A DNA stretch of 64,000 nt from Candidatus Omnitrophota bacterium (GCA_020053475.1 JAGVNC010000028.1:551-64550), one strand, 5' to 3'. Positions 1-45,505 are shown, numbered from the stretch's first letter. Program-made: numbers and translations. The notes: generated by a model from the letters alone, not told the origin.

Positions 1-1835
1 ATATCCGCCGAGAGTTTGGCTTCATACTGAAGGACCGACTTGTATTGGTCAAGATAGGTGTCATTCCGGGACTTTAATTCCGTTTTATTTAAGACTCCCT
101 GTTTTTCAAATAGCTTAGCCACATTAGGATCATCATTAAGGGCCGCTAAGGCTTCGGGCGTGCTAACTAAATTAGGAAGGCCTCTTTTCTTGGCTTCTTT
201 GACCCATTCTTCGGTGTAGTTATCACCGTTAAAGATGACCCGTTTATGTTTTTTGATAATGTCTGAAAGCGTTTTTTGAACAGCTTTATTAAAATCTTTC
301 TTATCTTTTTTGGCTTGTTCAAGTTCGTCACAGATCTCATCGACGGCCTCAGCAACGATCGTATTTAATATAATGTTGGCACCCGCTAAACTCATCCCGG
401 ATCCGACGGCTCTAAACTCGAATTTGGATCCCGTAAAAGCGAACGGGGATGTTCTGTTACGATCCGAAGCGTGGCGAGGTAACGCCGGTAGCGAATCAAC
501 GCCGACTTCCAACGAACCGCCTTGTTTCGTGCTCTTCGCTCCGCCTTTTTCGATCTGTTGGATAATATCCATCAGCTGTTCGCCCAAATAAATGGAGATG
601 ATGGCGGGAGGCGCTTCATGCGATCCTAAACGATGATCATTGGCAGCCGAAGCGACAGAAGCTCTTAACACATGAGCATACGTGTCGACAGCTTTGATCA
701 CGGCACATAAAAAGATTAAAAATCTCTCATTTTCATGAGGATTGTCGCCGGGAGATAACCAGTTCTTGCCATCGGGACCGGTCATCGACCAGTTGCAATG
801 TTTTCCGGACCCATTAATCCCGGCAAACGGTTTTTCATGCAAGAGACAAGCGAGCCCGTGTTTTTCGGCCACTTTTTGCATCACTTCCATGCATAACATG
901 TTGTGATCAACGGCCAAGTTTTGATTTTCAAAAACCGGAGCGACTTCATACTGCGAAGGGGCGACTTCATTATGGCGCGTTGTCGTCGGAGAACCAAGCC
1001 TCCACATTTCGCGATCTAAGTCTTCCATAAACCCGATGATCCGCGTTTTAATGGCCCCAAAATAATGATCCGCCATTTGCTGATGCTTGGCTGGTTCCTT
1101 ACCGAACAATGTACGGCCGGTTTGGATCAGGTCGATTCTTTTATTGTAAAATTTACGATCAATTAAGAAATATTCTTGTTCTCCTCCCAATGTTGAATAA
1201 GCTTTGTTGGTGATTTTTAATCCCAACAACTTTGCCAACCGTTCCGCTTGGATGGCGAGAGCCTTGATGGATCGAAGGAGGGGTGTTTTCTTATCCAGCG
1301 CTTCTCCCTTCCAGCCGATGAAATACGTCGGGATACAAAGAGTGGCGCTTTTCACCCCTTCTTTAATAAACGCAGGGCTTGTGGGATCCCATCCGGTATA
1401 TCCTCGAGCTTCAAATGTCGGCCTTAATCCGCCGGAAGGAAAACTAGAGGCATCAGGTTCGCCCTGAATCAGCTCTTTGCCAGAAAAATCAAGGATACAG
1501 CTGCCTTCCCCGTCCGGCTTGACAAAAGAGTCATGTTTTTCAGCCGTAAGGCCGGTCAGCGGCTGGAACCAATGGGTAAAATGTGTTGCGCCCTTGTTCA
1601 GCGCCCAATTCTTCATCGCATCGGCAACTTCATCGGCAATGCTGGGATCCAGTTTCCCGCCATTCTTGATTGTTTCACTGATCGATTTATAGGCTTTTTC
1701 GGATAAATAATTACGCATCGTCTTCAAACTAAAAACGTTTTGACCGTAATATTCCGTTATCGAATTCGCACCTTCCATGCCCTTTTCTCCTTTGCTTGTT
1801 GTAAAATCAATTCCTTGCAATCTCGATGGATTCAT
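1..1835 (-). CDS. glnN: Glutamine synthetase type III (GlnN), N-terminal ~610 aa; 3' end of the gene lies off the window. Start ATG at 1833-1835 with RBS GGAGAAACG.
   Basis: Minus-strand translation from 1835 reads [95 protein letters not shown]..., which is typical of the GS type III N-terminus. It has no stop inside the window, so the ORF track omits it. Confidence 0.8.
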
Positions 1836-1880
1836 ACGTTTCTCCTTATCTTTTGAACCTTAACCTCCGGCGGGGGCCTG

Positions 1881-1922
1881 AAAAACAAAAATCCTCTTAA
1901 CATACACGACATGTCGAAGAGG
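1881..1922 (-). terminator. Leader intrinsic terminator (attenuator) in the glnN 5' UTR: stem CCUCUU...AAGAGG followed by AUUUUUGUUUUUC on the minus-strand RNA.
   Basis: Inverted repeat cctctt (1893-1898) / aagagg (1917-1922) with an A-tract at 1881-1891 on the plus strand, which is the U-tract on the minus RNA. It lies between the predicted promoter and the glnN ATG. Confidence 0.6.
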
Positions 1923-1934
1923 ACTTCAATGCCC
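1921..1934 (-). promoter_or_regulatory. ANTAR-type target hairpin GGGC-AUUGAA-GUCC (hexaloop with A1 and G4). Its 3' strand overlaps the downstream terminator stem by 2 nt.
   Basis: Minus RNA reads guagGGCAUUGAAGUCCucuuc. The same 14-nt module recurs at 4028-4041 and, with an AUCGAA loop, at 4127-4140. Confidence 0.6.
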
Positions 1935-1990
1935 TACATCTGATTTCGTTGAAATCTTAAAAGCGTCATCGCTTTTTAAAGAATGGTTGA

Positions 1991-2019
1991 AGTATACAAT
2001 TAGCGCCTTTTCTTGTCAA
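1991..2019 (-). promoter_or_regulatory. Sigma70-type promoter of glnN: -35 TTGACA (2014-2019), 17-nt spacer, -10 TATACT (1991-1996).
   Basis: Minus strand reads tttcTTGACAagaaaaggcgctaattgTATACTtcaacc, with a perfect -35 and a near-consensus -10. Confidence 0.6.
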
Positions 2020-2074
2020 GAAATTTTTCTGGAGACACCTAACAAATTTATGGCCATCAACCATTTGTTGATGA

Positions 2075-2117
2075 TTTTTTAGAGGACAGAGGCCGTGAAT
2101 CTCTGTCCTCTAAAAAA
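2075..2117. repeat. Perfect palindrome TTTTTTAGAGGACAGAG-N9-CTCTGTCCTCTAAAAAA (17-nt arms) between glnB and the glnN promoter. A second palindrome ATCAAC-cattt-GTTGAT sits at 2055-2071.
   Basis: Read directly from the sequence. The U-tract precedes and the A-tract follows the stem on both strands, so it is not a canonical terminator in either direction. Confidence 0.7.
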
Positions 2118-2128
2118 CTTTCTTGAAC

Positions 2129-2470
2129 TTACCCGATGGCTTCAGAACCTTCTTCGCCGGTGCGAATGCGGACACATCGCGACATGTCAAGAACGAAAAT
2201 CTTACCATCGCCGATGTTCCCCGTCCTAGCTCCACGAACAATGGCTTTGACGGTTGGCTCAACGAAGTCTTCGTTGACACCAATTTCCAAGCGAACTTTT
2301 CTCAACAGGTTTCCTGTTTCCTTGGCCCCACGGTAAAGCTCCGTGACCCCTTTTTGCTTTCCGTGCCCTAAAACAGGGCTGACGGTAATCAGGTTCACAT
2401 CCGCCTTATAAAGCTCTTTTTTAACATCCTCGAGCCTATGGGGTTGAATAATAGCGATCACTAACTTCAT
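2129..2470 (-). CDS. glnB: Nitrogen regulatory protein P-II (GlnB/GlnK family), 113 aa.
   Basis: MKLVIAIIQPHRLEDVKKEL...GVTELYRGAKETGN... The T-loop Tyr51 lies in the RGAKE context, and the gene is immediately downstream of amtB (the amtB-glnK arrangement). Confidence 0.9.
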   Translation of the reverse strand: MKLVIAIIQPHRLEDVKKELYKADVNLITVSPVLGHGKQKGVTELYRGAKETGNLLRKVRLEIGVNEDFVEPTVKAIVRGARTGNIGDGKIFVLDMSRCVRIRTGEEGSEAIG

Positions 2471-2527
2471 ATGTCCTCCTCCGATGTTTCCTAATGTTGA
2501 TTGTTGAAATCGGTGGTTTCTTAACGA

Positions 2528-3766
2528 TTAGTCTAGAACGGTATAAGCAACCTCGTGATGTTGGGTCAAGTCAAGGCCGATGGCTTCATCTTTATCAGCC
2601 ACTCGAAGGCCCATAACGACATCGACGACCTTGGCGATGATAAACGTCGCAACGAAGCAGTAAACAACCGTAATGCCGACAGCAATAAGCTGTTTAGCCA
2701 CTAGCCCAGCGTTGCCGTAAAATAACCCATCGGCTCCGGCGGGATTAATCGTTGTTGTGGCAAATAATCCGGTTGCAATGGCCCCCCAGGCTCCTCCAAT
2801 GCCATGGACGCCAAAGGCATCCAGAGAATCATCGTAGCCTAACTTAGGTTTCACCACACCTACCGCAATAAAGCAGAACACACTAACTAATAAACCAATC
2901 ACAATGGCGCCCATCACGTTGACAAAACCAGCGGCCGGAGTGATCGCAACCAATCCTGCGACAATGCCAGTAACGGTCCCGAACATCGTCGGAGAACCAT
3001 TAAACTTCCATTCCAACAGCGCCCAACTTAACCCCGCCGCAGCAGCAGCGGTATTGGTAACGACAAACGCGCTAACGGCAAGGCCATTGGCGGCCAAGGC
3101 ACTTCCGGCATTGAACCCAAACCAACCGAACCAAAGAAGCGCGGCGCCTAAGACCGTAAAGGGAAGATTGTGCAAGGGCATTGGTTTATTTTCATATCCT
3201 TTTCTTTTGCCTAAAACGATCGCCATGACCAAAGCAGCAATCCCAGCATTGATATGGACAACAGTTCCGCCGGCAAAATCCAAAGCTCCTAAATTACGGA
3301 TAAATCCGCCCACGGCCCAAACCATATGACAAATCGGGGCGTAAACAAACGTTGCCCACAAGACGATGAAGACCAAAAAGGCCGAGAACTTCATTCTTTC
3401 CGCAAAAGCCCCAATAATCAACGCAGGCGTGATGATGGCAAACATGGCCTGGAAGATCATGAAGGCCTGATGGGGAATCGTGGCTGAATAATCCGCATAA
3501 GGTTCTAAGCCGACACCGTTCAATCCCGCCCAGCTCAATCCTCCGATAAAAGAATTGCCCGGACCAAACGAAAGGCTATACCCAAAAAGCACCCACTGCA
3601 GGCTCAACACGCATAATACGGTGAAGCATTGCATCAAAACACCTAAAACATTTTTCCGTCTGACCATGCCTCCATAAAAAAAGGCCAATCCCGGCGTCAT
3701 CAACATGACCAGCGCTGTCGACGCGAGCACCCACGCTGTATCCCCGCTATTAATCACTGCTTCCAT
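2528..3766 (-). CDS. amtB: Ammonium transporter AmtB, 412 aa.
   Basis: Polytopic membrane protein with Amt-family motifs (FGFNAGSA, GAIAERM-like AFAERMKFSAF). A strong RBS AAGGAGGAGG precedes the ATG at 3764-3766. Confidence 0.9.
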   Translation of the reverse strand: MEAVINSGDTAWVLASTALVMLMTPGLAFFYGGMVRRKNVLGVLMQCFTVLCVLSLQWVLFGYSLSFGPGNSFIGGLSWAGLNGVGLEPYADYSATIPHQAFMIFQAMFAIITPALIIGAFAERMKFSAFLVFIVLWATFVYAPICHMVWAVGGFIRNLGALDFAGGTVVHINAGIAALVMAIVLGKRKGYENKPMPLHNLPFTVLGAALLWFGWFGFNAGSALAANGLAVSAFVVTNTAAAAAGLSWALLEWKFNGSPTMFGTVTGIVAGLVAITPAAGFVNVMGAIVIGLLVSVFCFIAVGVVKPKLGYDDSLDAFGVHGIGGAWGAIATGLFATTTINPAGADGLFYGNAGLVAKQLIAVGITVVYCFVATFIIAKVVDVVMGLRVADKDEAIGLDLTQHHEVAYTVLD

Positions 3767-3797
3767 TGGTTACCTCCTCCTTTTTATCCCTGTTCAT

Positions 3798-3929
3798 TTA
3801 TTGTTCGTTTTTGTTTTTCAACGATGAGACAAACCACTTAAAAACAGCATAAAAACAAACCGCATTCAACATTAAAAGAGAGAATAATAATGATGCTCCG
3901 ATTTTACCCATATGCCCGGCGATAAACAT
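3798..3929 (-). CDS. Small hydrophobic leader ORF (43 aa, one predicted TM helix) ending 31 nt upstream of amtB.
   Basis: Sequence MFIAGHMGKIGASLLFSLLMLNAVCFYAVFKWFVSSLKNKNEQ, with RBS GGAG 7 nt upstream of the ATG. It sits inside the long amtB leader. It is below the ORF-track length cutoff. Confidence 0.3.
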   Translation of the reverse strand: MFIAGHMGKIGASLLFSLLMLNAVCFYAVFKWFVSSLKNKNEQ

Positions 3930-3978
3930 GTTTGTTCTCCTATCGTTAAGTGACATTATCATCGCTTGCAGGGGGCTT

Positions 3979-4029
3979 TAAAAAAGAAAAGCCCTCTTTG
4001 AAAGCTACCCACAGCTTTACTCAAGAGGG
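3979..4029 (-). terminator. Intrinsic terminator/attenuator 1 in the amtB leader: extended stem CCCUCUU-gagu-AAAGCU...AGCUUU-ca-AAGAGGG followed by CUUUUCUUUUUU.
   Basis: Plus strand reads aaaaaagaaaagCCCTCTTtgAAAGCTacccacAGCTTTactcAAGAGGG. Confidence 0.6.
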
Positions 4030-4041
4030 ACTTCAATGCCC
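4028..4041 (-). promoter_or_regulatory. ANTAR-type hairpin GGGC-AUUGAA-GUCC overlapping terminator 1 by 2 nt.
   Basis: Plus strand ggacttcaatgccc, identical to the glnN leader copy at 1921-1934. Confidence 0.6.
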
Positions 4042-4085
4042 ATCTTCAAGGCCATTCTTTGTATCGTGATGTTATATCCCGACGA

Positions 4086-4128
4086 CAAATAAAAAATCCC
4101 AACACTTGATCCATTTCCATGCGTTGGG
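4086..4128 (-). terminator. Intrinsic terminator/attenuator 2 in the amtB leader: stem CCCAAC...GUUGGG followed by AUUUUUUAUUU.
   Basis: Plus strand aaataaaaaatCCCAACacttgatccatttccatgcGTTGGG, read directly. Confidence 0.5.
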
Positions 4129-4168
4129 ACTTCGATGTCCTTGCTTACTTGAAACCTTCTTTGGTTTC
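4127..4168 (-). promoter_or_regulatory. Canonical ANTAR dual-hairpin target. P1 is GAAACC-AAAGAA-GGUUUC (4151-4168), then a 10-nt linker, then P2 GGAC-AUCGAA-GUCC (4127-4140). P2 overlaps the 5' strand of terminator 2.
   Basis: Both hexaloops have A at position 1 and G at position 4 on the minus-strand RNA only. On the plus strand the loops would read UUCUUU and UUCGAU. Confidence 0.6.
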
Positions 4169-4198
4169 GTAAGACGGCTTTGTCTTTAGAACAGAAAG

Positions 4199-4227
4199 AG
4201 TATACTATCTAAAAAATTGGGTGTCAA
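4199..4227 (-). promoter_or_regulatory. Sigma70-type promoter of the amtB-glnB operon: -35 TTGACA (4222-4227), 17-nt spacer, -10 TATACT (4199-4204). This leaves a leader of about 420 nt.
   Basis: Minus strand reads ttttcTTGACAcccaattttttagatagTATACTctttc, the same architecture as the glnN promoter. Confidence 0.6.
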
Positions 4228-4251
4228 GAAAATTTTTAAAATATCCGTTTT

Positions 4252-5493
4252 TTATTTCTTTTGATGCTGAAGCTCATCCATCAGGATAATCGATTCGGAG
4301 ATATCTTTCATGGAACGGCAGGAATCCATGCTCTTTTTGTGAATCAATTTGTAGGCCGCTTCTTCCCCCAGATTGTTTAGCCGCATCAAAATCCCCTTGG
4401 CGCGTTCAACAATTTTACGCGTTTCTAAGGCTTCCTTCGCTTTAATGGCTTCTTCCATGAGTTTAGTGTTCTCAACGGCCACGGCCGCTTGGTTGGCGAC
4501 CATCTGCAAGATATTGATTTCGTCTTCGATAAAGGCATGGGGCGCCTTGGTATAAGTGCTAATAACCCCAATGGCCTTATTCTTCACGATCATGGGGACC
4601 GCCAACATGGATGTCAAATTTTCGCGCACCGCCAATTCACGAAATCGATATTCCTTTTCCTGGCGGACGTCATAAATCGAGATTGGTTTTCGTTCCCGAA
4701 TGACCTTGCCGCTAACACTGTCGTTGACTTTTAAATTAGGCTTCTTTTTATATTCTTCGCTTAAGCTCTGGGTGGCTTTAATGACTAATTCGTTGCCCTT
4801 TTCGTCCAACAACATAATCGAGCAAATCTTGGAATTGAGCATTTCCGCGGTCACAACGACAATCAGATTAAGAATTTCATCCAAATAATCCGGCGAGGTG
4901 ATGGATTGACTGACTTTGTTGAGACTATCAAATTGAAGGGCCTTTTTTTTCGTTTCTTCATAAAGATGGGCATGGGCGATGGTTCCGCTGATCTGCTTGG
5001 CAATCAGGGAAAGCAAGCTAATGCTGCTGGGGGTATAATCATGGGGCTTTTTGTGCTGGACGGTAACAACACCAATGGCGTTTTTTTTATACACAATCGG
5101 TACCGAAAGAAAGGCTTCGTAGCGATCTTCCGGCAGCACATCAATCTTTTTAAAACGTTTGTCACGATAAGCGCCTTTCTTGATAGCCACAAATTCATTT
5201 TCTTGGGCCACCCAACCCGTGATCCCTTCTCCCGCTTTGAGGATCACCTTGCCCAACTCTTTCTGGTGAGGGATTTTAGACGCCCGCAAAACAAGATTTT
5301 CTTTTTTCTCGTCGAAAAGATAAATAAACACCGAATCCGCCCGTGTCACTTCATTAACGACTTTGACAACTTCATTTAAAATAAAGTCCAAATTCAGCTC
5401 AGAATTGGTAATTTCCACGATCCGTCTTAACACCTTCAATTCTTCCGGCTGGCTGATGCTTAATTTTTTACTTTTTGTGTTTTCTCGGCCCAT
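4252..5493 (-). CDS. GAF-GAF-ANTAR RNA-binding response regulator (transcription antiterminator), about 413 aa. ATG at 5491-5493 with RBS AAGGGG. The ORF track begins 5 codons earlier at TTG 5508.
   Basis: The C-terminus ETRKIVERAKGILMRLNNLGEEAAYKLIHKKSMDSCRSMKDISESII matches the ANTAR consensus (ERAKGiLM, EeAY, smD). Two GAF-like domains lie upstream. Confidence 0.75.
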   Translation of the reverse strand: MGRENTKSKKLSISQPEELKVLRRIVEITNSELNLDFILNEVVKVVNEVTRADSVFIYLFDEKKENLVLRASKIPHQKELGKVILKAGEGITGWVAQENEFVAIKKGAYRDKRFKKIDVLPEDRYEAFLSVPIVYKKNAIGVVTVQHKKPHDYTPSSISLLSLIAKQISGTIAHAHLYEETKKKALQFDSLNKVSQSITSPDYLDEILNLIVVVTAEMLNSKICSIMLLDEKGNELVIKATQSLSEEYKKKPNLKVNDSVSGKVIRERKPISIYDVRQEKEYRFRELAVRENLTSMLAVPMIVKNKAIGVISTYTKAPHAFIEDEINILQMVANQAAVAVENTKLMEEAIKAKEALETRKIVERAKGILMRLNNLGEEAAYKLIHKKSMDSCRSMKDISESIILMDELQHQKK

Positions 5494-5537: not shown

Positions 5538-5738
5538 ATGAATATCCTTCTCGCCATTGTCATCGTTGCCGGATGCTTTGCCTTCATGGGCATCGGCCTG
5601 CTGTTGGCCAAAAAATCCCTGAAAAGAGGCTGTTCCGTCGATCCTGATGCCTGCGCTTGCCGCAAAGAGGGCAAGGATCCCGCCTCTTGCGATCAAGAGA
5701 CAACAGCGAATTCCCCCAAAACAAATCCCTCAATCTAA
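5538..5738 (+). CDS. nqrM: Small membrane protein with a C-terminal 4-Cys motif, NqrM-like (DUF539, Na+-NQR maturation), 66 aa. The ORF-track start at 5475 would overlap the ANTAR regulator gene and was not used.
   Basis: MNILLAIVIVAGCFAFMGIGLLLAKKSLKRGCSVDPDACACRKEGKDPASCDQ... One TM helix plus four conserved Cys, adjacent to the nqr operon. Confidence 0.5.
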   Translation: MNILLAIVIVAGCFAFMGIGLLLAKKSLKRGCSVDPDACACRKEGKDPASCDQETTANSPKTNPSI

Positions 5739-5860: not shown

Positions 5861-7096
5861 TTAACCAAACGAGTCAAAGGCGATCATTTCTTGAGGCACG
5901 CCCAGGTCGCTCAACATTTTTTGGACGGCCGCGATCATCAGGGGCGGCCCGCACAAATAGTACTCAATCTCCTCCGGCTCTTCATGGTTCTTAAGGTATT
6001 GCTCATAAACGACTTGATGAATAAACCCTTGATACCCTGTCCAATTGTCTTCCGGTAATGGTTCGGAAAGAGCGACATTATATTTAAAATTGGGGAAATT
6101 CTTCTCAATATTCTCAAAATCTTCCGTATAAAACATTTCACGTTTTGAACGGGCCCCGTACCAATACGTCACTTTGCGGTCACGCGTTTTTAATGTATGA
6201 AACAGATGGAATAAATGGCTGCGCATCGGCGCCATCCCTGCCCCGCCGCCGATATAAATCATTTCGCGTTTCGTGTTTTTGATAAAGAATTCCCCGTAAG
6301 GGCCGCTGATCGTCGCTTGATCTCCTGGTTTTAAATAAAAGATATAAGACGAAGCCTTCCCGGGGGGAAGCGACATATCGCGCGGAGGAGGTGTCGCAAT
6401 GCGGACATTGAGCATGACAATGCCCGGCTCGGCGGGATGACTGGCCATCGAATACGCCCTGAAAATAGGCTCATCATTATGGGCCTTCAACGCCCAGAGA
6501 TTATATTTATCCCAATCGGGACGGAATTTTTCTTCGATTTGAAAATTTTGAAACAAAAGGTCTTTATATTCAGGGATGTCAATTTGAATATAGCCGCCGG
6601 CTTGAAAATTTAACGCTTGCCCGGCCGGAAGCTCTAAGACTAATTCTTTAATAAATGTCGCCACATTGCGGTTTGACCTCACCCTGCATTCATATTTTTT
6701 AATATGAAATATTTCATCGGGAATGCGGATTTTAAGATCATTTTTGACCTTCACTTGACAGGATAAACGGTAGTGTTGTTTCTGCATGGCCCGGTTGATA
6801 TGCCCTGTTTCCGTAGGCAAAATATTCCCGCCTCCCTCAAGAACTTGGCATTTGCACATCGCGCATGTCCCGCCACCGCCGCACGCGGAAGGGACAAATA
6901 TTTTATTTTCTGCCAACGTGGATAGAAGCGTTCTTCCGGCAGGAACAACAATCGGCTGAGGATCATCATTAATGAAAATCTTGCAGTCCCCCGCGGCCAC
7001 CACCTTCACCTTAATGAAAGCAATGATTGCGACTAAAAAAAGAATAATCGCCGTAAAGACAACGGTGCTAATGATGACATACTGGTAAAGTGGCAT
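5861..7096 (-). CDS. nqrF: Na+-translocating NADH:quinone oxidoreductase subunit F (2Fe-2S ferredoxin plus FAD/NAD-binding domains), 411 aa.
   Basis: N-terminal TM helix, the [12 protein letters not shown] 2Fe-2S motif and a ferredoxin-reductase-type domain. It is the last gene of the nqrA-F operon. Confidence 0.9.
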
Positions 7097-7739: not shown

Positions 7740-8375
7740 CTAGGCGCTTTCAGCGTAACCGGAAATGGCCCGCTGAATCCACACAATAATGCCTAATAAG
7801 AAAAATGCTCCGGGGGCCAGTACCATCATGCCGTTATTGGCGTAACCGTGGGCATACATCCATTGAGGCACCACATGAAACCCTAACAGCGTTCCTGCCC
7901 CAAAAATTTCACGAATGATCCCAATCATCACAAGGATCGCGCTGTATCCCAACCCGTTGGCGAGCCCGTCCAAAAAGGATTTCCAGGGCGGATTACTCAT
8001 CGCAAAGGCTTCTAAGCGGCCCATCACGATACAATTGGTGATGATCAGCCCGACAAAAACGCTCAACTGCTTGCTGACATCGAACATATAAGCCCGCAGC
8101 ACTTGGTCAATCGAAATAACCACGGCAGACACAACCGTTAATTGAACAATGATCCGAATGCTCGACGGGATAAAATGACGCATTAAAGAAATAATAACGT
8201 TCGACATCGACGTTACGATTGTTAGCCCCAAAGACATAACAATCGCTGTTTTAAGTTGTGTCGTTACAGCCAAGGCTGAACAAATCCCTAGAATTTGAAA
8301 TGTTATAGGATTGGCATCCCATAATCCATCCTTAACAATTTTTTGATTCTTTTTTGATAATAACGCTTCGGGCAT
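7740..8375 (-). CDS. nqrD: Na+-NQR subunit D, about 211 aa. Start at ATG 8373-8375 with RBS GGAGGTG.
   Basis: MPEALLSKKNQKIVKDGLWDANPITFQILGICSALAVTT..., NqrD/RnfE family. Confidence 0.85.
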   Translation of the reverse strand: MPEALLSKKNQKIVKDGLWDANPITFQILGICSALAVTTQLKTAIVMSLGLTIVTSMSNVIISLMRHFIPSSIRIIVQLTVVSAVVISIDQVLRAYMFDVSKQLSVFVGLIITNCIVMGRLEAFAMSNPPWKSFLDGLANGLGYSAILVMIGIIREIFGAGTLLGFHVVPQWMYAHGYANNGMMVLAPGAFFLLGIIVWIQRAISGYAESA

Positions 8376-8412
8376 ATAACACCTCCATTTTAAAAAAGGC
8401 AATCATTCCGCC

Positions 8413-9150
8413 TTAACTGTTCTTTCTTATTTTACTAAAATACGGCTCATAAAGCTTAATATTCTTATCGAGCATGTCCGTCACGCCAGTTCCTGTAATC
8501 GTGGCGGCTGTAATCCCATCCACGTGATAGTTGAGTTCTTCGCCCTGAAACACATCTTTAGCTTTTCCTTTAACAACGACAATCGGCGTCACCTTATTTT
8601 CCTTGACAGAGAAGACCGTCTTGCCTTTAAAGTTGTTTTGAAACCATTCTTTTTCAATTTCGCCACCTAACCCCGGAGTCTCGCCGTGTTTATAAAAAGT
8701 AACCCCTCTTACCGTCGTTCCATCGACTTCAATCGCTAAATACCCATAAAGCACCGACCACAACCCTTGACCGACAATCGGATACGCATAAGCTAGCACT
8801 TTGCCGTCCTCTTGGTAGATATAGACAGGATGCAAATTCTTTTCACTCTCTTGAATATCCTTCGGCTTCTTGCCCTCAACAATGTTGCCATTCTCATCAA
8901 TAACAATTTCTTGGATTCTAGATTCATAAACCTTAAGGACATCTTCCGGCTTCATTTTCGGGCCCAGAGGCTCCGCAAGCTGAACAGCCTTAAGAATGTT
9001 TTTCTTGACATCAAGCTCCGCGTTCAATTCTTGCTTTGCCCGCAAGCCTTCGGAAACGCCGGAAAGGAGCACAGCGCTAACAACACAAATAATGGTTGCA
9101 AAGACAAATGTGTATGTCGTTTGATTCATTTTAGACATTTTTAACGGCAA
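8413..9150 (-). CDS. nqrC: Na+-NQR subunit C (FMN-binding), 245 aa.
   Basis: N-terminal TM helix and the covalent-FMN threonine motif DGITAATITGTGV. Confidence 0.85.
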   Translation of the reverse strand: MPLKMSKMNQTTYTFVFATIICVVSAVLLSGVSEGLRAKQELNAELDVKKNILKAVQLAEPLGPKMKPEDVLKVYESRIQEIVIDENGNIVEGKKPKDIQESEKNLHPVYIYQEDGKVLAYAYPIVGQGLWSVLYGYLAIEVDGTTVRGVTFYKHGETPGLGGEIEKEWFQNNFKGKTVFSVKENKVTPIVVVKGKAKDVFQGEELNYHVDGITAATITGTGVTDMLDKNIKLYEPYFSKIRKNS

Positions 9151-10306
9151 TCCTGGTTAATCTCTTTTTGACGTTGGCTTCAACTACATAATGATCGATC
9201 AACGGGGCAAAGGCGTTCATAAATAAAATCGCCAGCATCACTCCTTCGGGATATGCAGGATTGATCACCCGGATCAGGGTCGCCAAGACACCAACTAAAG
9301 CCCCATAAATCCATCGTCCTAAGTTTGTCGCCGCGCTCGATACAGGGTCAGTGGCCATAAACACGGCCCCAAAAGCAAATCCGCCCATCACCAAATGCCA
9401 ATGGGGAGGAAGGTTGAAAAAAGCTAAACGATCGGGGCCGCGCAGTAAGTAAAAAACAGTAGACATCGCTAACATTCCTAAAACACACCCCAATGTTGTG
9501 CGCCAACTGGCGACACGCGTGATCAACAAAAAGGCCAGCCCAATCAGACACGCTAAGGCGGAAGTCTCTCCAATCGAACCGGGAATAAACCCTAAAAATA
9601 GATTATGGAATGTAAACCCCGCGTGATTAAGGGCCTCGATGGCCGATGAACCTCGGGGAGCTTGAGCGGCAACCGCCAGCGGTGTCGCTAGCGTATAACC
9701 ATCAACAGCCACCCAAACCTTAGACCCCGAAATAGACGCGGGATACGCAAAGAAAACAAAGGCTCGGGCCGTCAACGCAGGATTGAACACATTCATCCCT
9801 GTCCCACCAAAAATCTCTTTGCCAAAAACAACGCCAAAAGAAATCCCCACCGCGGCCTGCCAAAGAGGGATGCTCGGCGGCAACGTTAACGCATATAATA
9901 TTCCTGTGACTAAAAACCCTTCATTGATTTCATGCTTACGCATGACGGCAAACAACACTTCCCAAACACCACCCGCCATATAAGAAACAAGAATAATAGG
10001 AAGAACTTTGAAAGCCCCCAGCTTCCAGCATTGGGCAGGATCAATCGGCAATCCTTTGGCTAATAAAATCTGATAGCCCGTATTGTAAACCGCCATCAGT
10101 GTCGCCGGGATTAAGGCGATCACAACAAAAATCATGACTCTCTTCATATCCACGTGATCGCGGACATGCGGCGCCTTAGGCGTCGTCTTCCCCGGCGTAA
10201 AAAGAAAAGTGTCCATGGCCTCATACAGTGGATAGAGTTTTTCCAATGGCCTCCCTTTTTCAAAAAGTTTTCCGGCTTGGTGCAATGTGTCTTGTAAAAA
10301 TTTCAT
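9131..10306 (-). CDS. nqrB: Na+-NQR subunit B, 391 aa.
   Basis: Polytopic NqrB/RnfD-family membrane protein placed between nqrA and nqrC. Confidence 0.85.
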   Translation of the reverse strand: MKFLQDTLHQAGKLFEKGRPLEKLYPLYEAMDTFLFTPGKTTPKAPHVRDHVDMKRVMIFVVIALIPATLMAVYNTGYQILLAKGLPIDPAQCWKLGAFKVLPIILVSYMAGGVWEVLFAVMRKHEINEGFLVTGILYALTLPPSIPLWQAAVGISFGVVFGKEIFGGTGMNVFNPALTARAFVFFAYPASISGSKVWVAVDGYTLATPLAVAAQAPRGSSAIEALNHAGFTFHNLFLGFIPGSIGETSALACLIGLAFLLITRVASWRTTLGCVLGMLAMSTVFYLLRGPDRLAFFNLPPHWHLVMGGFAFGAVFMATDPVSSAATNLGRWIYGALVGVLATLIRVINPAYPEGVMLAILFMNAFAPLIDHYVVEANVKKRLTRIAVKNV

Positions 10307-11667
10307 TAATGATTAACCGCTTCTTCTTTTTCGATTAAATTTAATCCTTTGCGAATAATCCCGCCCACGTCTGTTTTCGACGGGCAGGCAAAAGAGGCCA
10401 ACGCAAAATCTTCCTCATCACATTCCAAGATTCCTAATTTCTCCATCTCGTCAATATCACCAACCATCACTGCTTTAATCAAAAAATATGTAAAAATATC
10501 CAAGGGGACGTATTGATCATAAATATGATTAAGAACAATCGCCCGGTCGCTGCCGTGTTTATCCGTATCGACAGAAGCTTCGCCTGCCGGTAAGAATGAA
10601 GAAACAAATGCGCTGGAAAAAGTGACGGCGTTAAAGCCGGGCGCCAACCATCCCAGGAAATGGCGCTTTCCGCCTTCGGGAATCACCGTCATCTGGGAAT
10701 CATAAGGCCCAATAAATCCATTGAGCCCAACAATCCTTCCCGATAAAACACTGCCGGCAATACAACGCATGCCGGACAAATGATTCGTTCCTAAAAGATG
10801 GGAAATAGGGGCTCCAATGATTGTTTTTTTATAAACGCGTTCGGGGGCACCTTCCCCTGTAATGGCCACAATTCTCTCAGACAAAGAAACCCCATTAACA
10901 AAAAGATTACCGATTCTCACAACATCCTGCGCCTCGACATACCAAATAAGGTCGCCTTTATTCAAAGGATCCACACAATGGATATGCGTACTGACGTTCC
11001 CTGCCGGATGAGGCCCTGAAAACTGATGGATTTCCACATTGTTTGCCTTGGTCAACGCTTTGGACTTGGGATTAGGGCTTACACATAAATAAACCTTCCC
11101 GGGGGTGAGTCGAGTGAGAGCATCCAATCCGGCCTGGAACAGATCTTCTTTCCCATTCAGGACAAAGTCTATATCCGCAGCCAAAGGCTCTGTATTCATG
11201 GCATGAATAAAAATAGATTTAGGCGTTTGATTAGGATGGGCTATTTGGGAAAACGGCCGTTGACGAATTGTAGGCCACATGCCGGCACCGAGCAATTCTT
11301 CTGTAACCTTATCCCTTGCAAGGGTTTTCAATAAACTTGGGTTATAGCTAGGAAAAATCTCAAAATCCATCTTCCCATCTGTTTCAATCACAATATTAAG
11401 GAGGGCCCTTTTATCGCCGCGATTAATCGCCGCTACTTTACCACTGACCGGGGAAGATATTTTAATTTCGGGGATCCCTTTATCATGAAATAAAGGAGTG
11501 CCGGCTTTAACAGAATCTCCCTGCTTAACAAGAGGATGCGGCTTAAGGCCCCGCAAAAAGCCGATGTCCACCCCCACAAAAGCAGGCAAAGGGGATTCGA
11601 CAACATTAGGGGCTGCAGCTCCTTTTAGCTTAAGATCACGGCCTTTTTTAATCTGGTGAGTTATCAT
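10306..11667 (-). CDS. nqrA: Na+-NQR subunit A, 453 aa.
   Basis: Soluble NqrA-like protein and first gene of the operon. A candidate promoter TTGAAT-17-TATTAT lies upstream on the minus strand near 11755-11786. Confidence 0.8.
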   Translation of the reverse strand: MITHQIKKGRDLKLKGAAAPNVVESPLPAFVGVDIGFLRGLKPHPLVKQGDSVKAGTPLFHDKGIPEIKISSPVSGKVAAINRGDKRALLNIVIETDGKMDFEIFPSYNPSLLKTLARDKVTEELLGAGMWPTIRQRPFSQIAHPNQTPKSIFIHAMNTEPLAADIDFVLNGKEDLFQAGLDALTRLTPGKVYLCVSPNPKSKALTKANNVEIHQFSGPHPAGNVSTHIHCVDPLNKGDLIWYVEAQDVVRIGNLFVNGVSLSERIVAITGEGAPERVYKKTIIGAPISHLLGTNHLSGMRCIAGSVLSGRIVGLNGFIGPYDSQMTVIPEGGKRHFLGWLAPGFNAVTFSSAFVSSFLPAGEASVDTDKHGSDRAIVLNHIYDQYVPLDIFTYFLIKAVMVGDIDEMEKLGILECDEEDFALASFACPSKTDVGGIIRKGLNLIEKEEAVNH

Positions 11668-22554: not shown

Positions 22555-22745
22555 ATAAAAATCCCCGCCTGTGCCGTCGGAGCAGATAAGTGGTGAACCA
22601 GTTCACCAAGTGGGAGCCTCTTTAAGCTGTCCAAGGACAGCCTAAAAGATAAGCGATTGGCGGCTTATAAAAGCCGGCAATATGTCCCTTAACAAAAGTA
22701 TTGGTTCTTTTAATCATGCCCCTAACGTACACTGCAGGGATTTAA
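22555..22745 (-). ncRNA. ssrS: Candidate 6S-like regulatory RNA of about 190 nt. It has its own extended -10 promoter and 5'/3' ends that form an irregular closing stem of at least 20 bp. It is upstream of the ygfA (MTHFS) gene.
   Basis: Promoter TGaTATAAT (22750-22758, inside the 3' end of pheT). The predicted 5' end AAAUCCCUGC pairs with GCGGGGAUUU at the 3' end, followed by UUUUAUG. Three perfect internal hairpins lie at 22588-22603, 22626-22641 and 22657-22676. The conserved ssrS-ygfA synteny comes from established knowledge. Confidence 0.4.
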
Positions 22746-28999: not shown

Positions 29000-29074
29000 T
29001 GGACCCGACAAGACTCGAACTTGTGACCTTTTCCATGTCAAGGAAACGCTCTAACCAAACTGAGCTACGGGTCC
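29000..29074 (-). tRNA. tRNA-Val (anticodon GAC).
   Basis: The reverse complement folds as a cloverleaf: acceptor GGACCCG/CGGGUCC, anticodon loop UUGACAU, T-loop UUCGAGU. Confidence 0.85.
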
Positions 29075-29150
29075 GGATTTAAATTCGAAATCCAAATCTC
29101 GAAATTCGAAACATCTGTTTCGTGCTTCCCCGGCCCGCGGCTTTTAGCCG

Positions 29151-29213
29151 TCCCCTGAAATCGCAGAGCGCTTTCGGGGATTAAATTCCAGAAAGGCTTT
29201 GCCTTTCATGGAA
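29151..29213. repeat. Triple-hairpin repeat element, copy 2, in inverted orientation, between tRNA-Val and tRNA-Leu.
   Basis: tcccctgaaatcgcagagcgctttcggggattaaattccagaaaggctttgcctttcatgga is about 85 percent identical to the reverse complement of copy 1. Confidence 0.65.
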
Positions 29214-29260
29214 CAAAGCGGCGGGGCGGGCGGATTTCGTATTGAGAATTTTTTTACACA

Positions 29261-29343
29261 TGGGCAAGGAGGGAGTCGAACCCTCACAGCCTTACGGCCA
29301 CAGGATTTTAAGTCCTGCGTGTATGCCATTCCACCACTTGCCC
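29261..29343 (-). tRNA. tRNA-Leu (anticodon UAA), class II with a long variable arm.
   Basis: Reverse complement GGGCAAGUGGUGGAAUGGCAUACACGCAGGACUUAAAAUCCUG...GGUUCGACUCCCUCCUUGCCCA, with anticodon loop CUUAAAA. Confidence 0.85.
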
Positions 29344-29449
29344 AGTAAAATCAGCGACCAGTGGTCAGTGCACAGTGATCAGAAAAGGAATATCGCGCAT
29401 GTTCGTATCTTTCTGGCCACTGACAACTGAACACTCTCCACTAAACTTA

Positions 29450-29521
29450 AGGCGCGAATCGGAATCGAACCGATGTATAGTGGTTTTGCAGACCACTGCC
29501 TTACCACTTGGCTATCGCGCC
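29450..29521 (-). tRNA. tRNA-Cys (anticodon GCA).
   Basis: Reverse complement GGCGCGAUAGCCAAGUGGUAAGGCAGUGGUCUGCAAAACCAC...GGUUCGAUUCCGAUUCGCGCCU, with discriminator U. Confidence 0.85.
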
Positions 29522-45428: not shown

Positions 45429-45505
45429 GACCCCATCGTCTAGCCTGGTCAGGACACAAGCTTTTCAAGCTTGCAGCGCGGGTTCAAATCCCGCTGGGGT
45501 CGCCA
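45429..45505 (+). tRNA. tRNA-Glu (anticodon UUC) with encoded CCA.
   Basis: GACCCCAUCGUCUAGCCUGGUCAGGACACAAGCUUUUCAAGCUUGCAGCGCGGGUUCAAAUCCCGCUGGGGUCGCCA, with anticodon loop UUUUCAA. Confidence 0.85.

Follow-up and report, generated by a model that had tools for sequence, protein, structure and literature searches.

The 64,000-nucleotide (nt) stretch of Candidatus Omnitrophota DNA analyzed here (the window; GCA_020053475.1, JAGVNC010000028.1:551-64550) carries nitrogen-assimilation genes whose leaders contain three copies of a 14-nt hairpin, GGRC-AUYGAA-GUCC, next to a gene for a presumed antiterminator protein with an ANTAR domain. Read in the direction of transcription (all the features of this cluster are on the minus strand, with positions counted from the first letter of the window), an nqrF-like gene is followed by the gene for the presumed antiterminator, a 413-amino acid GAF-GAF-ANTAR protein identified with Pfam (4252..5493), a predicted promoter (4227-4199) and a leader with the hairpins and terminators P0-P1-H1-T1-H2-T2. 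Next come an open reading frame (ORF) of 43 amino acids, amtB, the P-II gene, a bidirectional terminator, a second predicted promoter (2019-1991), the hairpin and terminator pair H3-T3, and glnN. The putatively regulated amtB gene (2528..3766; PF00909, E=2e-129) encodes an ammonium transporter and would be co-transcribed with the P-II gene (glnB/glnK, 2129..2470; PF00543, E=6.5e-26). The glnN gene (1..1835; Pfam GSIII_N, E=1.9e-77) encodes a type III glutamine synthetase and is truncated at the window edge.

A search of the 64 kb for GGRCAUYGAAGUCC returned three matches, each on the minus strand and within a leader, and the same three remained the sole matches when one mismatch was tolerated. 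Dinucleotide shuffles gave an expected count of 0.09, and three matches were reached in 0/100 shuffles. An earlier note on this DNA had reported the motif three times, at positions that our search reproduced. Each copy is predicted to form a candidate antiterminator hairpin with a stem of 4-5 bp and the hexaloop AUUGAA or AUCGAA (folding energies of -3.4 to -5.0 kcal/mol). H1 (GGAC-AUCGAA-GUCC, which is GGACATCGAAGTCC / GGACAUCGAAGUCC) spans 4140-4127 and folds at -4.0 kcal/mol, and H2 (GGGC-AUUGAA-GUCC, which is GGGCATTGAAGTCC / GGGCAUUGAAGUCC) spans 4041-4028 and folds at -3.4 kcal/mol. The H2 sequence occurs a second time at 1934-1921 as the core of H3, a slightly longer hairpin (AGGGC-AUUGAA-GUCCU, 1920..1935, -5.0 kcal/mol). 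H2 and H3 are thus identical along the 14 nt, both fitting the phylum consensus described below, and the three copies have flanks that show no relation to one another.

Each hairpin runs into a predicted intrinsic terminator that ends in a U-tract. T1 (4087..4134, -18.6 kcal/mol) has a stem at approximately 4133-4094 and has the sequence AAGUCC in common with H1. T2 (3976..4036, -19.6 kcal/mol) is capped by an apex hairpin, AAAGCU-GUGGGU-AGCUUU (4018-4001), with a hexaloop of the G..G.. type (GUGGGU, 4012-4007), and T3 (1876..1930, -16.7 kcal/mol; stem at approximately 1930-1888) has GAAGUCCU in common with H3. At -16.7 to -19.6 kcal/mol, the terminators are the default fold, because the hairpins alone are 12-16 kcal/mol weaker. 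In all three copies (3/3), the antiterminator hairpin shares its 3' half with the 5' half of the terminator, so that the two folds are mutually exclusive. The folds and U-tracts agree with the description in the earlier note of a 4-bp stem and hexaloop ahead of a terminator in every copy. The exact 2-nt overlap that it gave holds for the G-C core and not for the full extent of the competition, since the minimum free energy (MFE) structures pair more. In copies 1 and 3, the terminator helix takes the whole 3' arm, pairing GUCC with GGAU, and one or two A's of the loop also pair with U's in the helix. In copy 2, the terminator pairs CC contiguously, plus GAAG across a U mismatch.

The loops of these hairpins have an A at position 1 and a G at position 4 (A1/G4), as do those of two further hairpins in the amtB leader. 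P0 (AAGAC-AAAGCC-GUCUU, 4171..4186), recognized by sequence and MFE, begins 12 nt past the -10 box of the predicted sigma-70 promoter (TTGACA-17-TATACT, 4199..4227, 11/12 consensus positions). P1 (GAAACC-AAAGAA-GGUUUC, 4151..4168) is separated from H1 by a 10-nt linker; both the hairpin and the linker had been correctly assigned to the distal amtB copy in the earlier note. A weak P1 candidate (AAG-AAUGGC-CUU, 4048..4059) with a 3-bp stem and an A1/G4 loop lies 6 nt before H2, and its estimated chance frequency of ~0.16 makes it not significant alone. The glnN leader has an equally good predicted sigma-70 promoter (TTGACA-17-TATACT, 1991..2019, 11/12), and its 5'-proximal hairpin (AAAAGC-GAUGAC-GCUUUU, 1959..1976, MFE) begins 14 nt past the -10 box. 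This hairpin would display a G..G.. hexaloop if its inner G-C pair opened, making it a candidate distal P1 located 23 nt upstream of H3. Between the two lies a triloop hairpin (GAUUUC-AAC-GAAAUC, 1942..1956; sequence and MFE), which ends 7 nt from the GGGC of H3 rather than the 8 nt previously given. Both predicted transcription starts are upstream of the hairpins, the amtB promoter preceding every hairpin in its leader; a start downstream of them had been named as the result that would speak against their being transcribed.

Judged by the dual-hairpin criterion, copy 1 has the canonical pair (P1 and the 10-nt linker), copy 2 has the 3-bp upstream candidate and a G..G.. hexaloop at the terminator apex, and copy 3 has no partner within 16 nt, its GAUGAC hairpin lying 23 nt upstream beyond the triloop hairpin. 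H2 and H3 have no stable hexaloop P1 within 16 nt, in agreement with the earlier note; copy 2 does have the apex hexaloop and copy 3 the distal 5' hexaloop-capable hairpin. Because of these two elements, neither copy is necessarily partnerless. The earlier note had overlooked P0 (4186-4171), the glnN-leader hairpin (1976-1959) and the GUGGGU apex of T2.

The gene directly upstream of the amtB leader encodes the probable reader of these hairpins. Pfam assigned two GAF domains and an ANTAR domain to the 413-amino acid protein (PF03861, residues 352-403, E=5.7e-19; 68.1 bits versus a cut-off of 27.3) and found no receiver domain (Response_reg). This architecture places the protein outside the two-component response-regulator subfamily (EutV, GnfR, and PdtaR type), although it would act like the two-component ANTAR regulators. 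Its closest homologs are all from Candidatus Omnitrophota (69-76% identity). The ANTAR domain aligns without gaps to those of EutV (6wsh), Rv1626, and NasR. The residues R142, K143, K149, E160, and M172 of EutV correspond to R359, K360, K366, E377, and M389 and are invariant in 27 orthologs, in which the position of EutV Y164 (Y381) is Y or H. The roles of these RNA contacts, such as reading G4 and positioning the loop, are known from the EutV-RNA structure (PMC8934654).

The first GAF domain (GAF1) has its best match in the GAF domain of PtsP/EI-Ntr (3ci6, E=1.4e-27), and both GAF domains are ~30% identical to that of an Omnitrophota PtsP. In one related locus (L014), a ptsP gene (GAF and PEP-utilizer domains, EI-Ntr; 754 amino acids, 8231-10492, plus strand) lies directly 3' of the ANTAR gene, and ptsP likewise comes immediately after the GAF-GAF-ANTAR gene in L001, L012, and L013. 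The ptsP adjacency and the GAF identity suggest a common nitrogen signal. As EI-Ntr's GAF domain binds glutamine (PMC4848567), the PtsP/EI-Ntr-like N-terminal GAF domain gives roughly even odds that the signal is glutamine and/or 2-oxoglutarate.

To place the three hairpins in a wider context, we used 80 orthologous loci from species-level Omnitrophota genomes. The ANTAR gene is syntenic with hairpin leaders in most of them, where it is followed by a consensus promoter, hexaloop hairpins, and one to three serial terminators. When every terminator-like structure in these loci was screened for an overlapping upstream hexaloop hairpin, loops of the A..G.. class were found at 125 terminators and those of the G..G.. 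class at 48, versus 12-20 for each of the other 14 classes. As a loose detector gave many false positives in coding regions, it was replaced with strict criteria that define a unit by a G[G/A]C stem, an R..G.. loop, and a perfect terminator of at least 6 bp. This search found 124 strict units, 121 of them outside the window and all of those on the strand of the ANTAR gene. Their consensus is (A)GGRC-A-N-(U/A)-G-A-(A)-GUCC(U)CUU, with stems that are mostly GGGC/GUCC (70) or GGAC/GUCC (33), less often GGGC/GCCC (8), and a few others. Loop position 1 is A in 84% of the units and G in 15%. The G at loop position 4 is set by the unit definition and is thus no independent result; the independent evidence is the enrichment of the A..G.. 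class.

The genes behind the units point to a nitrogen regulon. The units form 92 arrays (27 with two or three units), which are followed by a gene for AmtB in 39 cases, GlnN in 22, a NirB-type nitrite reductase in four, and NifH in one. The other first genes code for a DUF2934 protein (5) or a porin-like protein (4), the remainder being small membrane ORFs. Viewed from the genes, at least one strict unit lies upstream of 41 of the 52 amtB genes and 20 of the 43 glnN genes. Of the regulon members guessed in the earlier note, amtB, glnN, nirB-like genes, and nifH do follow units in the relatives, whereas gdhA and urea genes were not seen in the available locus flanks. All unit counts are lower bounds, because imperfect terminators and 7-nt loops escape the strict criteria. 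Loops of 7 nt that keep A1 and G4 (GGGC-AAAGAUA-GUCC and GGGC-ACUGAUG-GUCC) are present in the leaders of L003, L027, L031, L051, L064, and L072.

Several proteins recur behind the ANTAR-type attenuators. DUF2934 proteins of 71 amino acids are encoded in L026 (6005-6217), L034, L035, L051, and L056, and porin-like proteins of 255-270 amino acids with a signal peptide, a conserved YSKYxWRGF motif, and no Pfam match in L050 (8503-9291), L058, L062, L065, and L128. Their recurrence as first genes makes both families probable uncharacterized members of the nitrogen regulon. The hydrophobic 43-amino acid ORF of the window (MFIAGHMGKIGASLLFSLLMLNAVCFYAVFKWFVSSLKNKNEQ, 3801..3929), which lies between T2 and amtB, has no Pfam match and is of uncertain gene status; in L035, L051, L054, and L187, a comparable small membrane ORF comes first after the attenuators. 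Two features of the units themselves were also observed. Positions +1 to +9 of the 3' flank (GUCC-U-C-U-U-U, 50-60% each) are conserved past the needs of pairing in the 124 units, and the 3' arm of the terminator resembles a Shine-Dalgarno sequence (AAGAGGA/AAAGGGGA).

Upstream partners are the exception among the units. A canonical P1, defined as an R..G.. hexaloop hairpin within 16 nt upstream, accompanies 33 of the 124 units (~27%), an R..G.. hexaloop caps the terminator in 40 (~32%), and 57 have neither partner. A direct stem/hexaloop test, applied in the same way to units and controls, found apex hexaloops of the A..G.. class in 21% of the units versus 1.9% of 1497 control terminators, a set that contains false positives (odds ratio 13, p=4e-16). 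Apex hexaloops of the G..G.. class occurred in 12% versus 1.5% (p=2e-8), and the remaining 14 apex loop classes were not enriched in units relative to controls (odds ratio 0.9). Classing of apex loops from MFE structures was dropped because the A1-U6 or G1-C6 pair closes in silico, so that hexaloops were under-counted. A special spacing of 13-16 nt between the hairpin loop and the apex was also rejected (median of 14.5 versus 15 in units that have no R..G.. apex, p=0.24; only the variance differs), as all these terminators are similar in size.

The hairpins lie at a bimodal distance from the -10 box, which differs between these architectures. Units with a P1 are mostly 29-70 nt from the box, and at least 23 units of the apex and partnerless classes begin 11-16 nt past a near-consensus -10 box, a position typical of glnN leaders. 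Hairpins that start there are ~5-9 nt into the predicted transcript, which leaves no possibility for a hairpin upstream. A survey of 171 strong sigma-70-like promoters in 81 sequences (the window and L001-L080) showed the same preference of A..G.. hairpins for 12-16 nt past the -10 box, where we counted 90 A..G.. and 28 G..G.. hairpins and at most 15 of any other class. P0 (12 nt) and the 5' hairpin of the glnN leader (14 nt) in the window obey this spacing rule. The preference implies that ANTAR-type leaders are driven by a substantial proportion of the strongest promoters in the regions surveyed.

The general mechanism and the theme of a nitrogen regulon are already known. The dual-hexaloop ANTAR motif was defined by Ramesh et al. 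(2012), whose predicted sites, in several phyla, precede genes for P-II, ammonium transporters, nitrite reductase, nitrogenase, and glutamine synthase; they called the GAF-ANTAR proteins uncharacterized (PMC3369931). A hairpin that withholds one arm of a terminator is the standard ANTAR logic (PMC3369931). As in the eut leaders that EutV/EutW control in Enterococcus faecalis (PMC3369931, PMC8934654), the hairpins described here have A1/G4 hexaloops, and the antiterminator's 3' arm overlaps the terminator's 5' arm. Copy 1 has P1 and the antiterminator hairpin joined by a 10-nt linker, inside the 5-12 nt range of eut, and the ANTAR domain retains the Tyr that stacks on G4, the Met plug, and the Arg/Lys/Glu contacts of EutV. 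Unlike EutV, which has a phosphorylated receiver, the protein has a GAF-GAF sensor; its putative targets are nitrogen-assimilation genes, two attenuators stand directly in tandem, and most Omnitrophota units have an apex hexaloop or no partner instead of an upstream P1.

The closest functional analog is the GnfK/GnfR system of Geobacter sulfurreducens, an ANTAR antiterminator of nitrogen genes with nearly the same regulon (PMC2995071). At nifH, glnK, and amtB, GnfR binds a conserved 14-nt element, CAGGCAANGGCGCC, overlapping their terminators (Ueki and Lovley, 2010; PMC2995071). The element reads GGC-AANGGC-GCC and has an A..G.. hexaloop, as in our hairpins. However, its stem is GGC/GCC rather than GGRC/GUCC, the phylum is different, and GnfR is a kinase-activated response regulator that works with RpoN-dependent promoters rather than the sigma-70-like promoters found here. 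The nitrogen regulons predicted with covariance models in Desulfotomaculum acetoxidans and Pelobacter carbinolicus also have multiple ANTAR RNAs per transcription unit (PMC3369931), but the dual-hairpin model would miss units without P1, and the Omnitrophota lie outside its coverage. NasR/nasF and NasT/NalA are alike in their ANTAR domain, A1/G4 hexaloops, and leader terminator (PMC7496416, PMC10783516), and the nirB-type nitrite reductase among the targets in some Omnitrophota loci recalls the nitrate-assimilation leaders. They differ in their sensors (NIT or NasS/REC), their signal (nitrate), and their single attenuator with two hexaloops. The likeness to PtsP/EI-Ntr (3ci6 and 3trc in the Protein Data Bank) lies in the two GAF domains, GAF1 having its best match there, and in the presence of ptsP beside the ANTAR gene in some loci; the output here is an RNA-binding ANTAR domain and not a phosphoenolpyruvate-dependent kinase. 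A literature search found no report on ANTAR in the Omnitrophota, and a 2025 review describes neither a characterized GAF-ANTAR system nor single-hexaloop attenuators. The novelty lies in the host phylum, in a GAF-GAF sensor that resembles PtsP, and in an architecture that often lacks P1 or has an apex hexaloop.

The three hairpins are very probably the antiterminator elements of ANTAR-type transcription attenuators. The earlier note had proposed ANTAR targets, and the adjoining ANTAR gene, the A1/G4 loops, the competition with terminators, and the 121 recurrent units on the ANTAR-gene strand all speak for it. Transcription would start at the two near-consensus sigma-70 promoters, and the leaders would fold by default into strong intrinsic terminators, a series of two ahead of amtB-glnB and a single one ahead of glnN, at which the polymerase halts. 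The active GAF-GAF-ANTAR protein would bind the hexaloop (A1, G4) of GGRC-AUYGAA-GUCC and stabilize the hairpin. Held in this way by an ANTAR dimer, the hairpin would keep GUCC from pairing with the GGAU at the base of the terminator, beside the U-tract, and allow read-through into the nitrogen-assimilation genes. The tandem attenuators of amtB would multiply the off state, the probability of termination being squared. In apex-class units, the second hexaloop can be accommodated in either fold and may add a contact with the protein that impedes closure of the lower terminator stem. What the sequence analysis establishes is the layout of the leaders, its conservation in the phylum, the link to the genes, and the ANTAR domain with its RNA contacts; from these features we infer binding and read-through, and the partner hexaloops may contribute as proposed. 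Given the target genes, the system would be on under nitrogen limitation.

Several points weigh against this interpretation. Three backbone contacts of EutV are replaced in the protein (R168H, R175C, and R177S), the transcription starts are predictions, and the putative ligand is assigned from the ~30% GAF identity. A weak promoter-like site downstream of T2 (TTTAAA-16-GATAAT, 9/12, 3982-3955, minus strand) could bypass both amtB attenuators and provide basal expression independent of ANTAR. The unit definition favors GGRC/GYCC stems and perfect terminators, the unit counts are non-independent events because the 80 genomes are related, and false positives are present among the control terminators. 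Finally, copies 2 and 3 have no canonical P1, and antitermination by EutV in vivo requires P1 and a 5-12 nt linker, being abolished by an additional 20 nt (PMC3369931, PMC8934654).

This last point is the basis for an alternative in which only copy 1 (P1 and H1) responds to ANTAR, and copies 2 and 3 are decayed sites before terminators that are constitutive or regulated otherwise. The EutV requirement for P1 and its linker length favors it, together with the lack of a stable hexaloop P1 within 16 nt of H2 or H3. Yet the 14-nt sequence that H2 and H3 have in common fits the phylum consensus, an upstream P1 is missing from 91 of the 124 units, and the units that start 11-16 nt past the -10 box (at least 23) indicate that the form without P1 is a conserved one and no product of decay. 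Eight independent metagenome examples among the matches listed show the same pattern, and in NasT/NalA antitermination is weakened but not lost when one hexaloop is mutated (PMC10783516). We thus consider it unlikely that copy 1 alone is functional. The earlier note had viewed copies 2 and 3 as single-hairpin or degenerate variants; the single-hairpin form fits, but units without P1 are too common and conserved in the phylum for local degeneracy.

A different factor (an RNA-binding protein, a small molecule, or an RNA-only switch) could instead read the hairpins, with the ANTAR gene a coincidental neighbor. ANTAR binding is a prediction here and the element is covered by no Rfam family: region 1800-4300 gave no match at the gathering threshold and none meaningful at E<=10. 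The same search matched no riboswitch family, however, and a 14-nt hairpin is too small for a ligand pocket. The A1/G4 hexaloop is the defining ANTAR signature, and the ANTAR gene is syntenic with the leaders in most of the 80 loci; we consider this alternative highly improbable. Scarcely credible is the proposal that the 14-mer has no regulatory role and arose by chance, as a side effect of the likeness between terminator stems (GUCCUCUU...AAGAGGAU), or by leader duplication. The 3' arm and its flank (GUCCUCUU) do belong to the terminator and are themselves conserved, and the 19-nt motif does occur by chance in the coding DNA of unrelated organisms. Against this, the shuffles never reached three matches, the 5' arm and loop are conserved outside the terminator, the loops belong selectively to the A..G.. 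and G..G.. classes, and the three copies have unrelated flanks.

The chance occurrences came from a metagenome scan with the 19-nt consensus AGGGCANNGAAGTCCTCTT, in which 113 of the 121 listed matches had no terminator, and most were in coding sequence of unrelated, often high-GC organisms. Such matches rule out the motif alone as a diagnostic and show that the terminator context is needed. The other eight listed matches are real units: their hairpins lie close to a promoter, the terminator apex usually has an R..G.. loop, and the genes downstream are amtB, glnN, or porin-like.

With the hairpins read as ANTAR-type antiterminators, the architecture of the units raises the question of how many hexaloops are needed. 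Walshe et al. (2022) identified one hexaloop as the minimal binding unit, proposed that P1 recruits the protein and that P2 is the antitermination hairpin, and expected single-hexaloop sites only where the timing of the polymerase is not limiting (PMC8934654). Their EutV-RNA structure could not explain why antitermination needs two hairpins (PMC8934654). We tentatively propose, with a confidence a little short of even, that ANTAR antitermination in the Omnitrophota routinely operates without an upstream recruitment hairpin, and that the partner, if any, is downstream at the apex of the terminator being blocked. As part of the same tentative reading, the antiterminator hexaloop hairpin would be the first structure of the transcript, ~5-9 nt from its predicted start, in an inverted or single-hexaloop arrangement. 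If true, the P1-then-P2 order of EutV and an obligatory recruitment hairpin are not general, and these leaders would be a minimal natural setting in which to study the need of ANTAR dimers for two sites. There are dozens of natural units in which a terminator is coupled to a single upstream hexaloop or in which a second one sits at the apex; they bear on the two-hairpin requirement and could serve as templates to test the model of Walshe et al. As dual-hairpin covariance models would miss most such sites, ANTAR regulons may be under-counted.

For the uncultivated and poorly understood Omnitrophota, the regulator, RNA sites, and regulon together propose a concrete mechanism for the control of nitrogen assimilation. 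They also suggest a likely physiological role for the widespread, uncharacterized GAF-ANTAR class and a ligand hypothesis that can be tested, namely that the PtsP-like GAF domains sense glutamine or 2-oxoglutarate.

Upstream of the ANTAR gene, the nqrF-like gene (5861-7096, minus strand; Fer2/FAD/NAD domains) is the last of an apparent nqr operon. Just downstream of it is a 66-amino acid, Cys-rich ORF with a single transmembrane segment (5538-5738, plus strand), convergent with the ANTAR gene, which might be a candidate NqrM-like maturation factor. Elsewhere in the window, we identified tRNA genes at 29000-29521 (minus strand) and 45429-45502 (plus strand) and a match to 6S RNA (RF00013) at 22558-22743 (minus strand) that scores 46.5 bits, just above the gathering threshold of 46.4.

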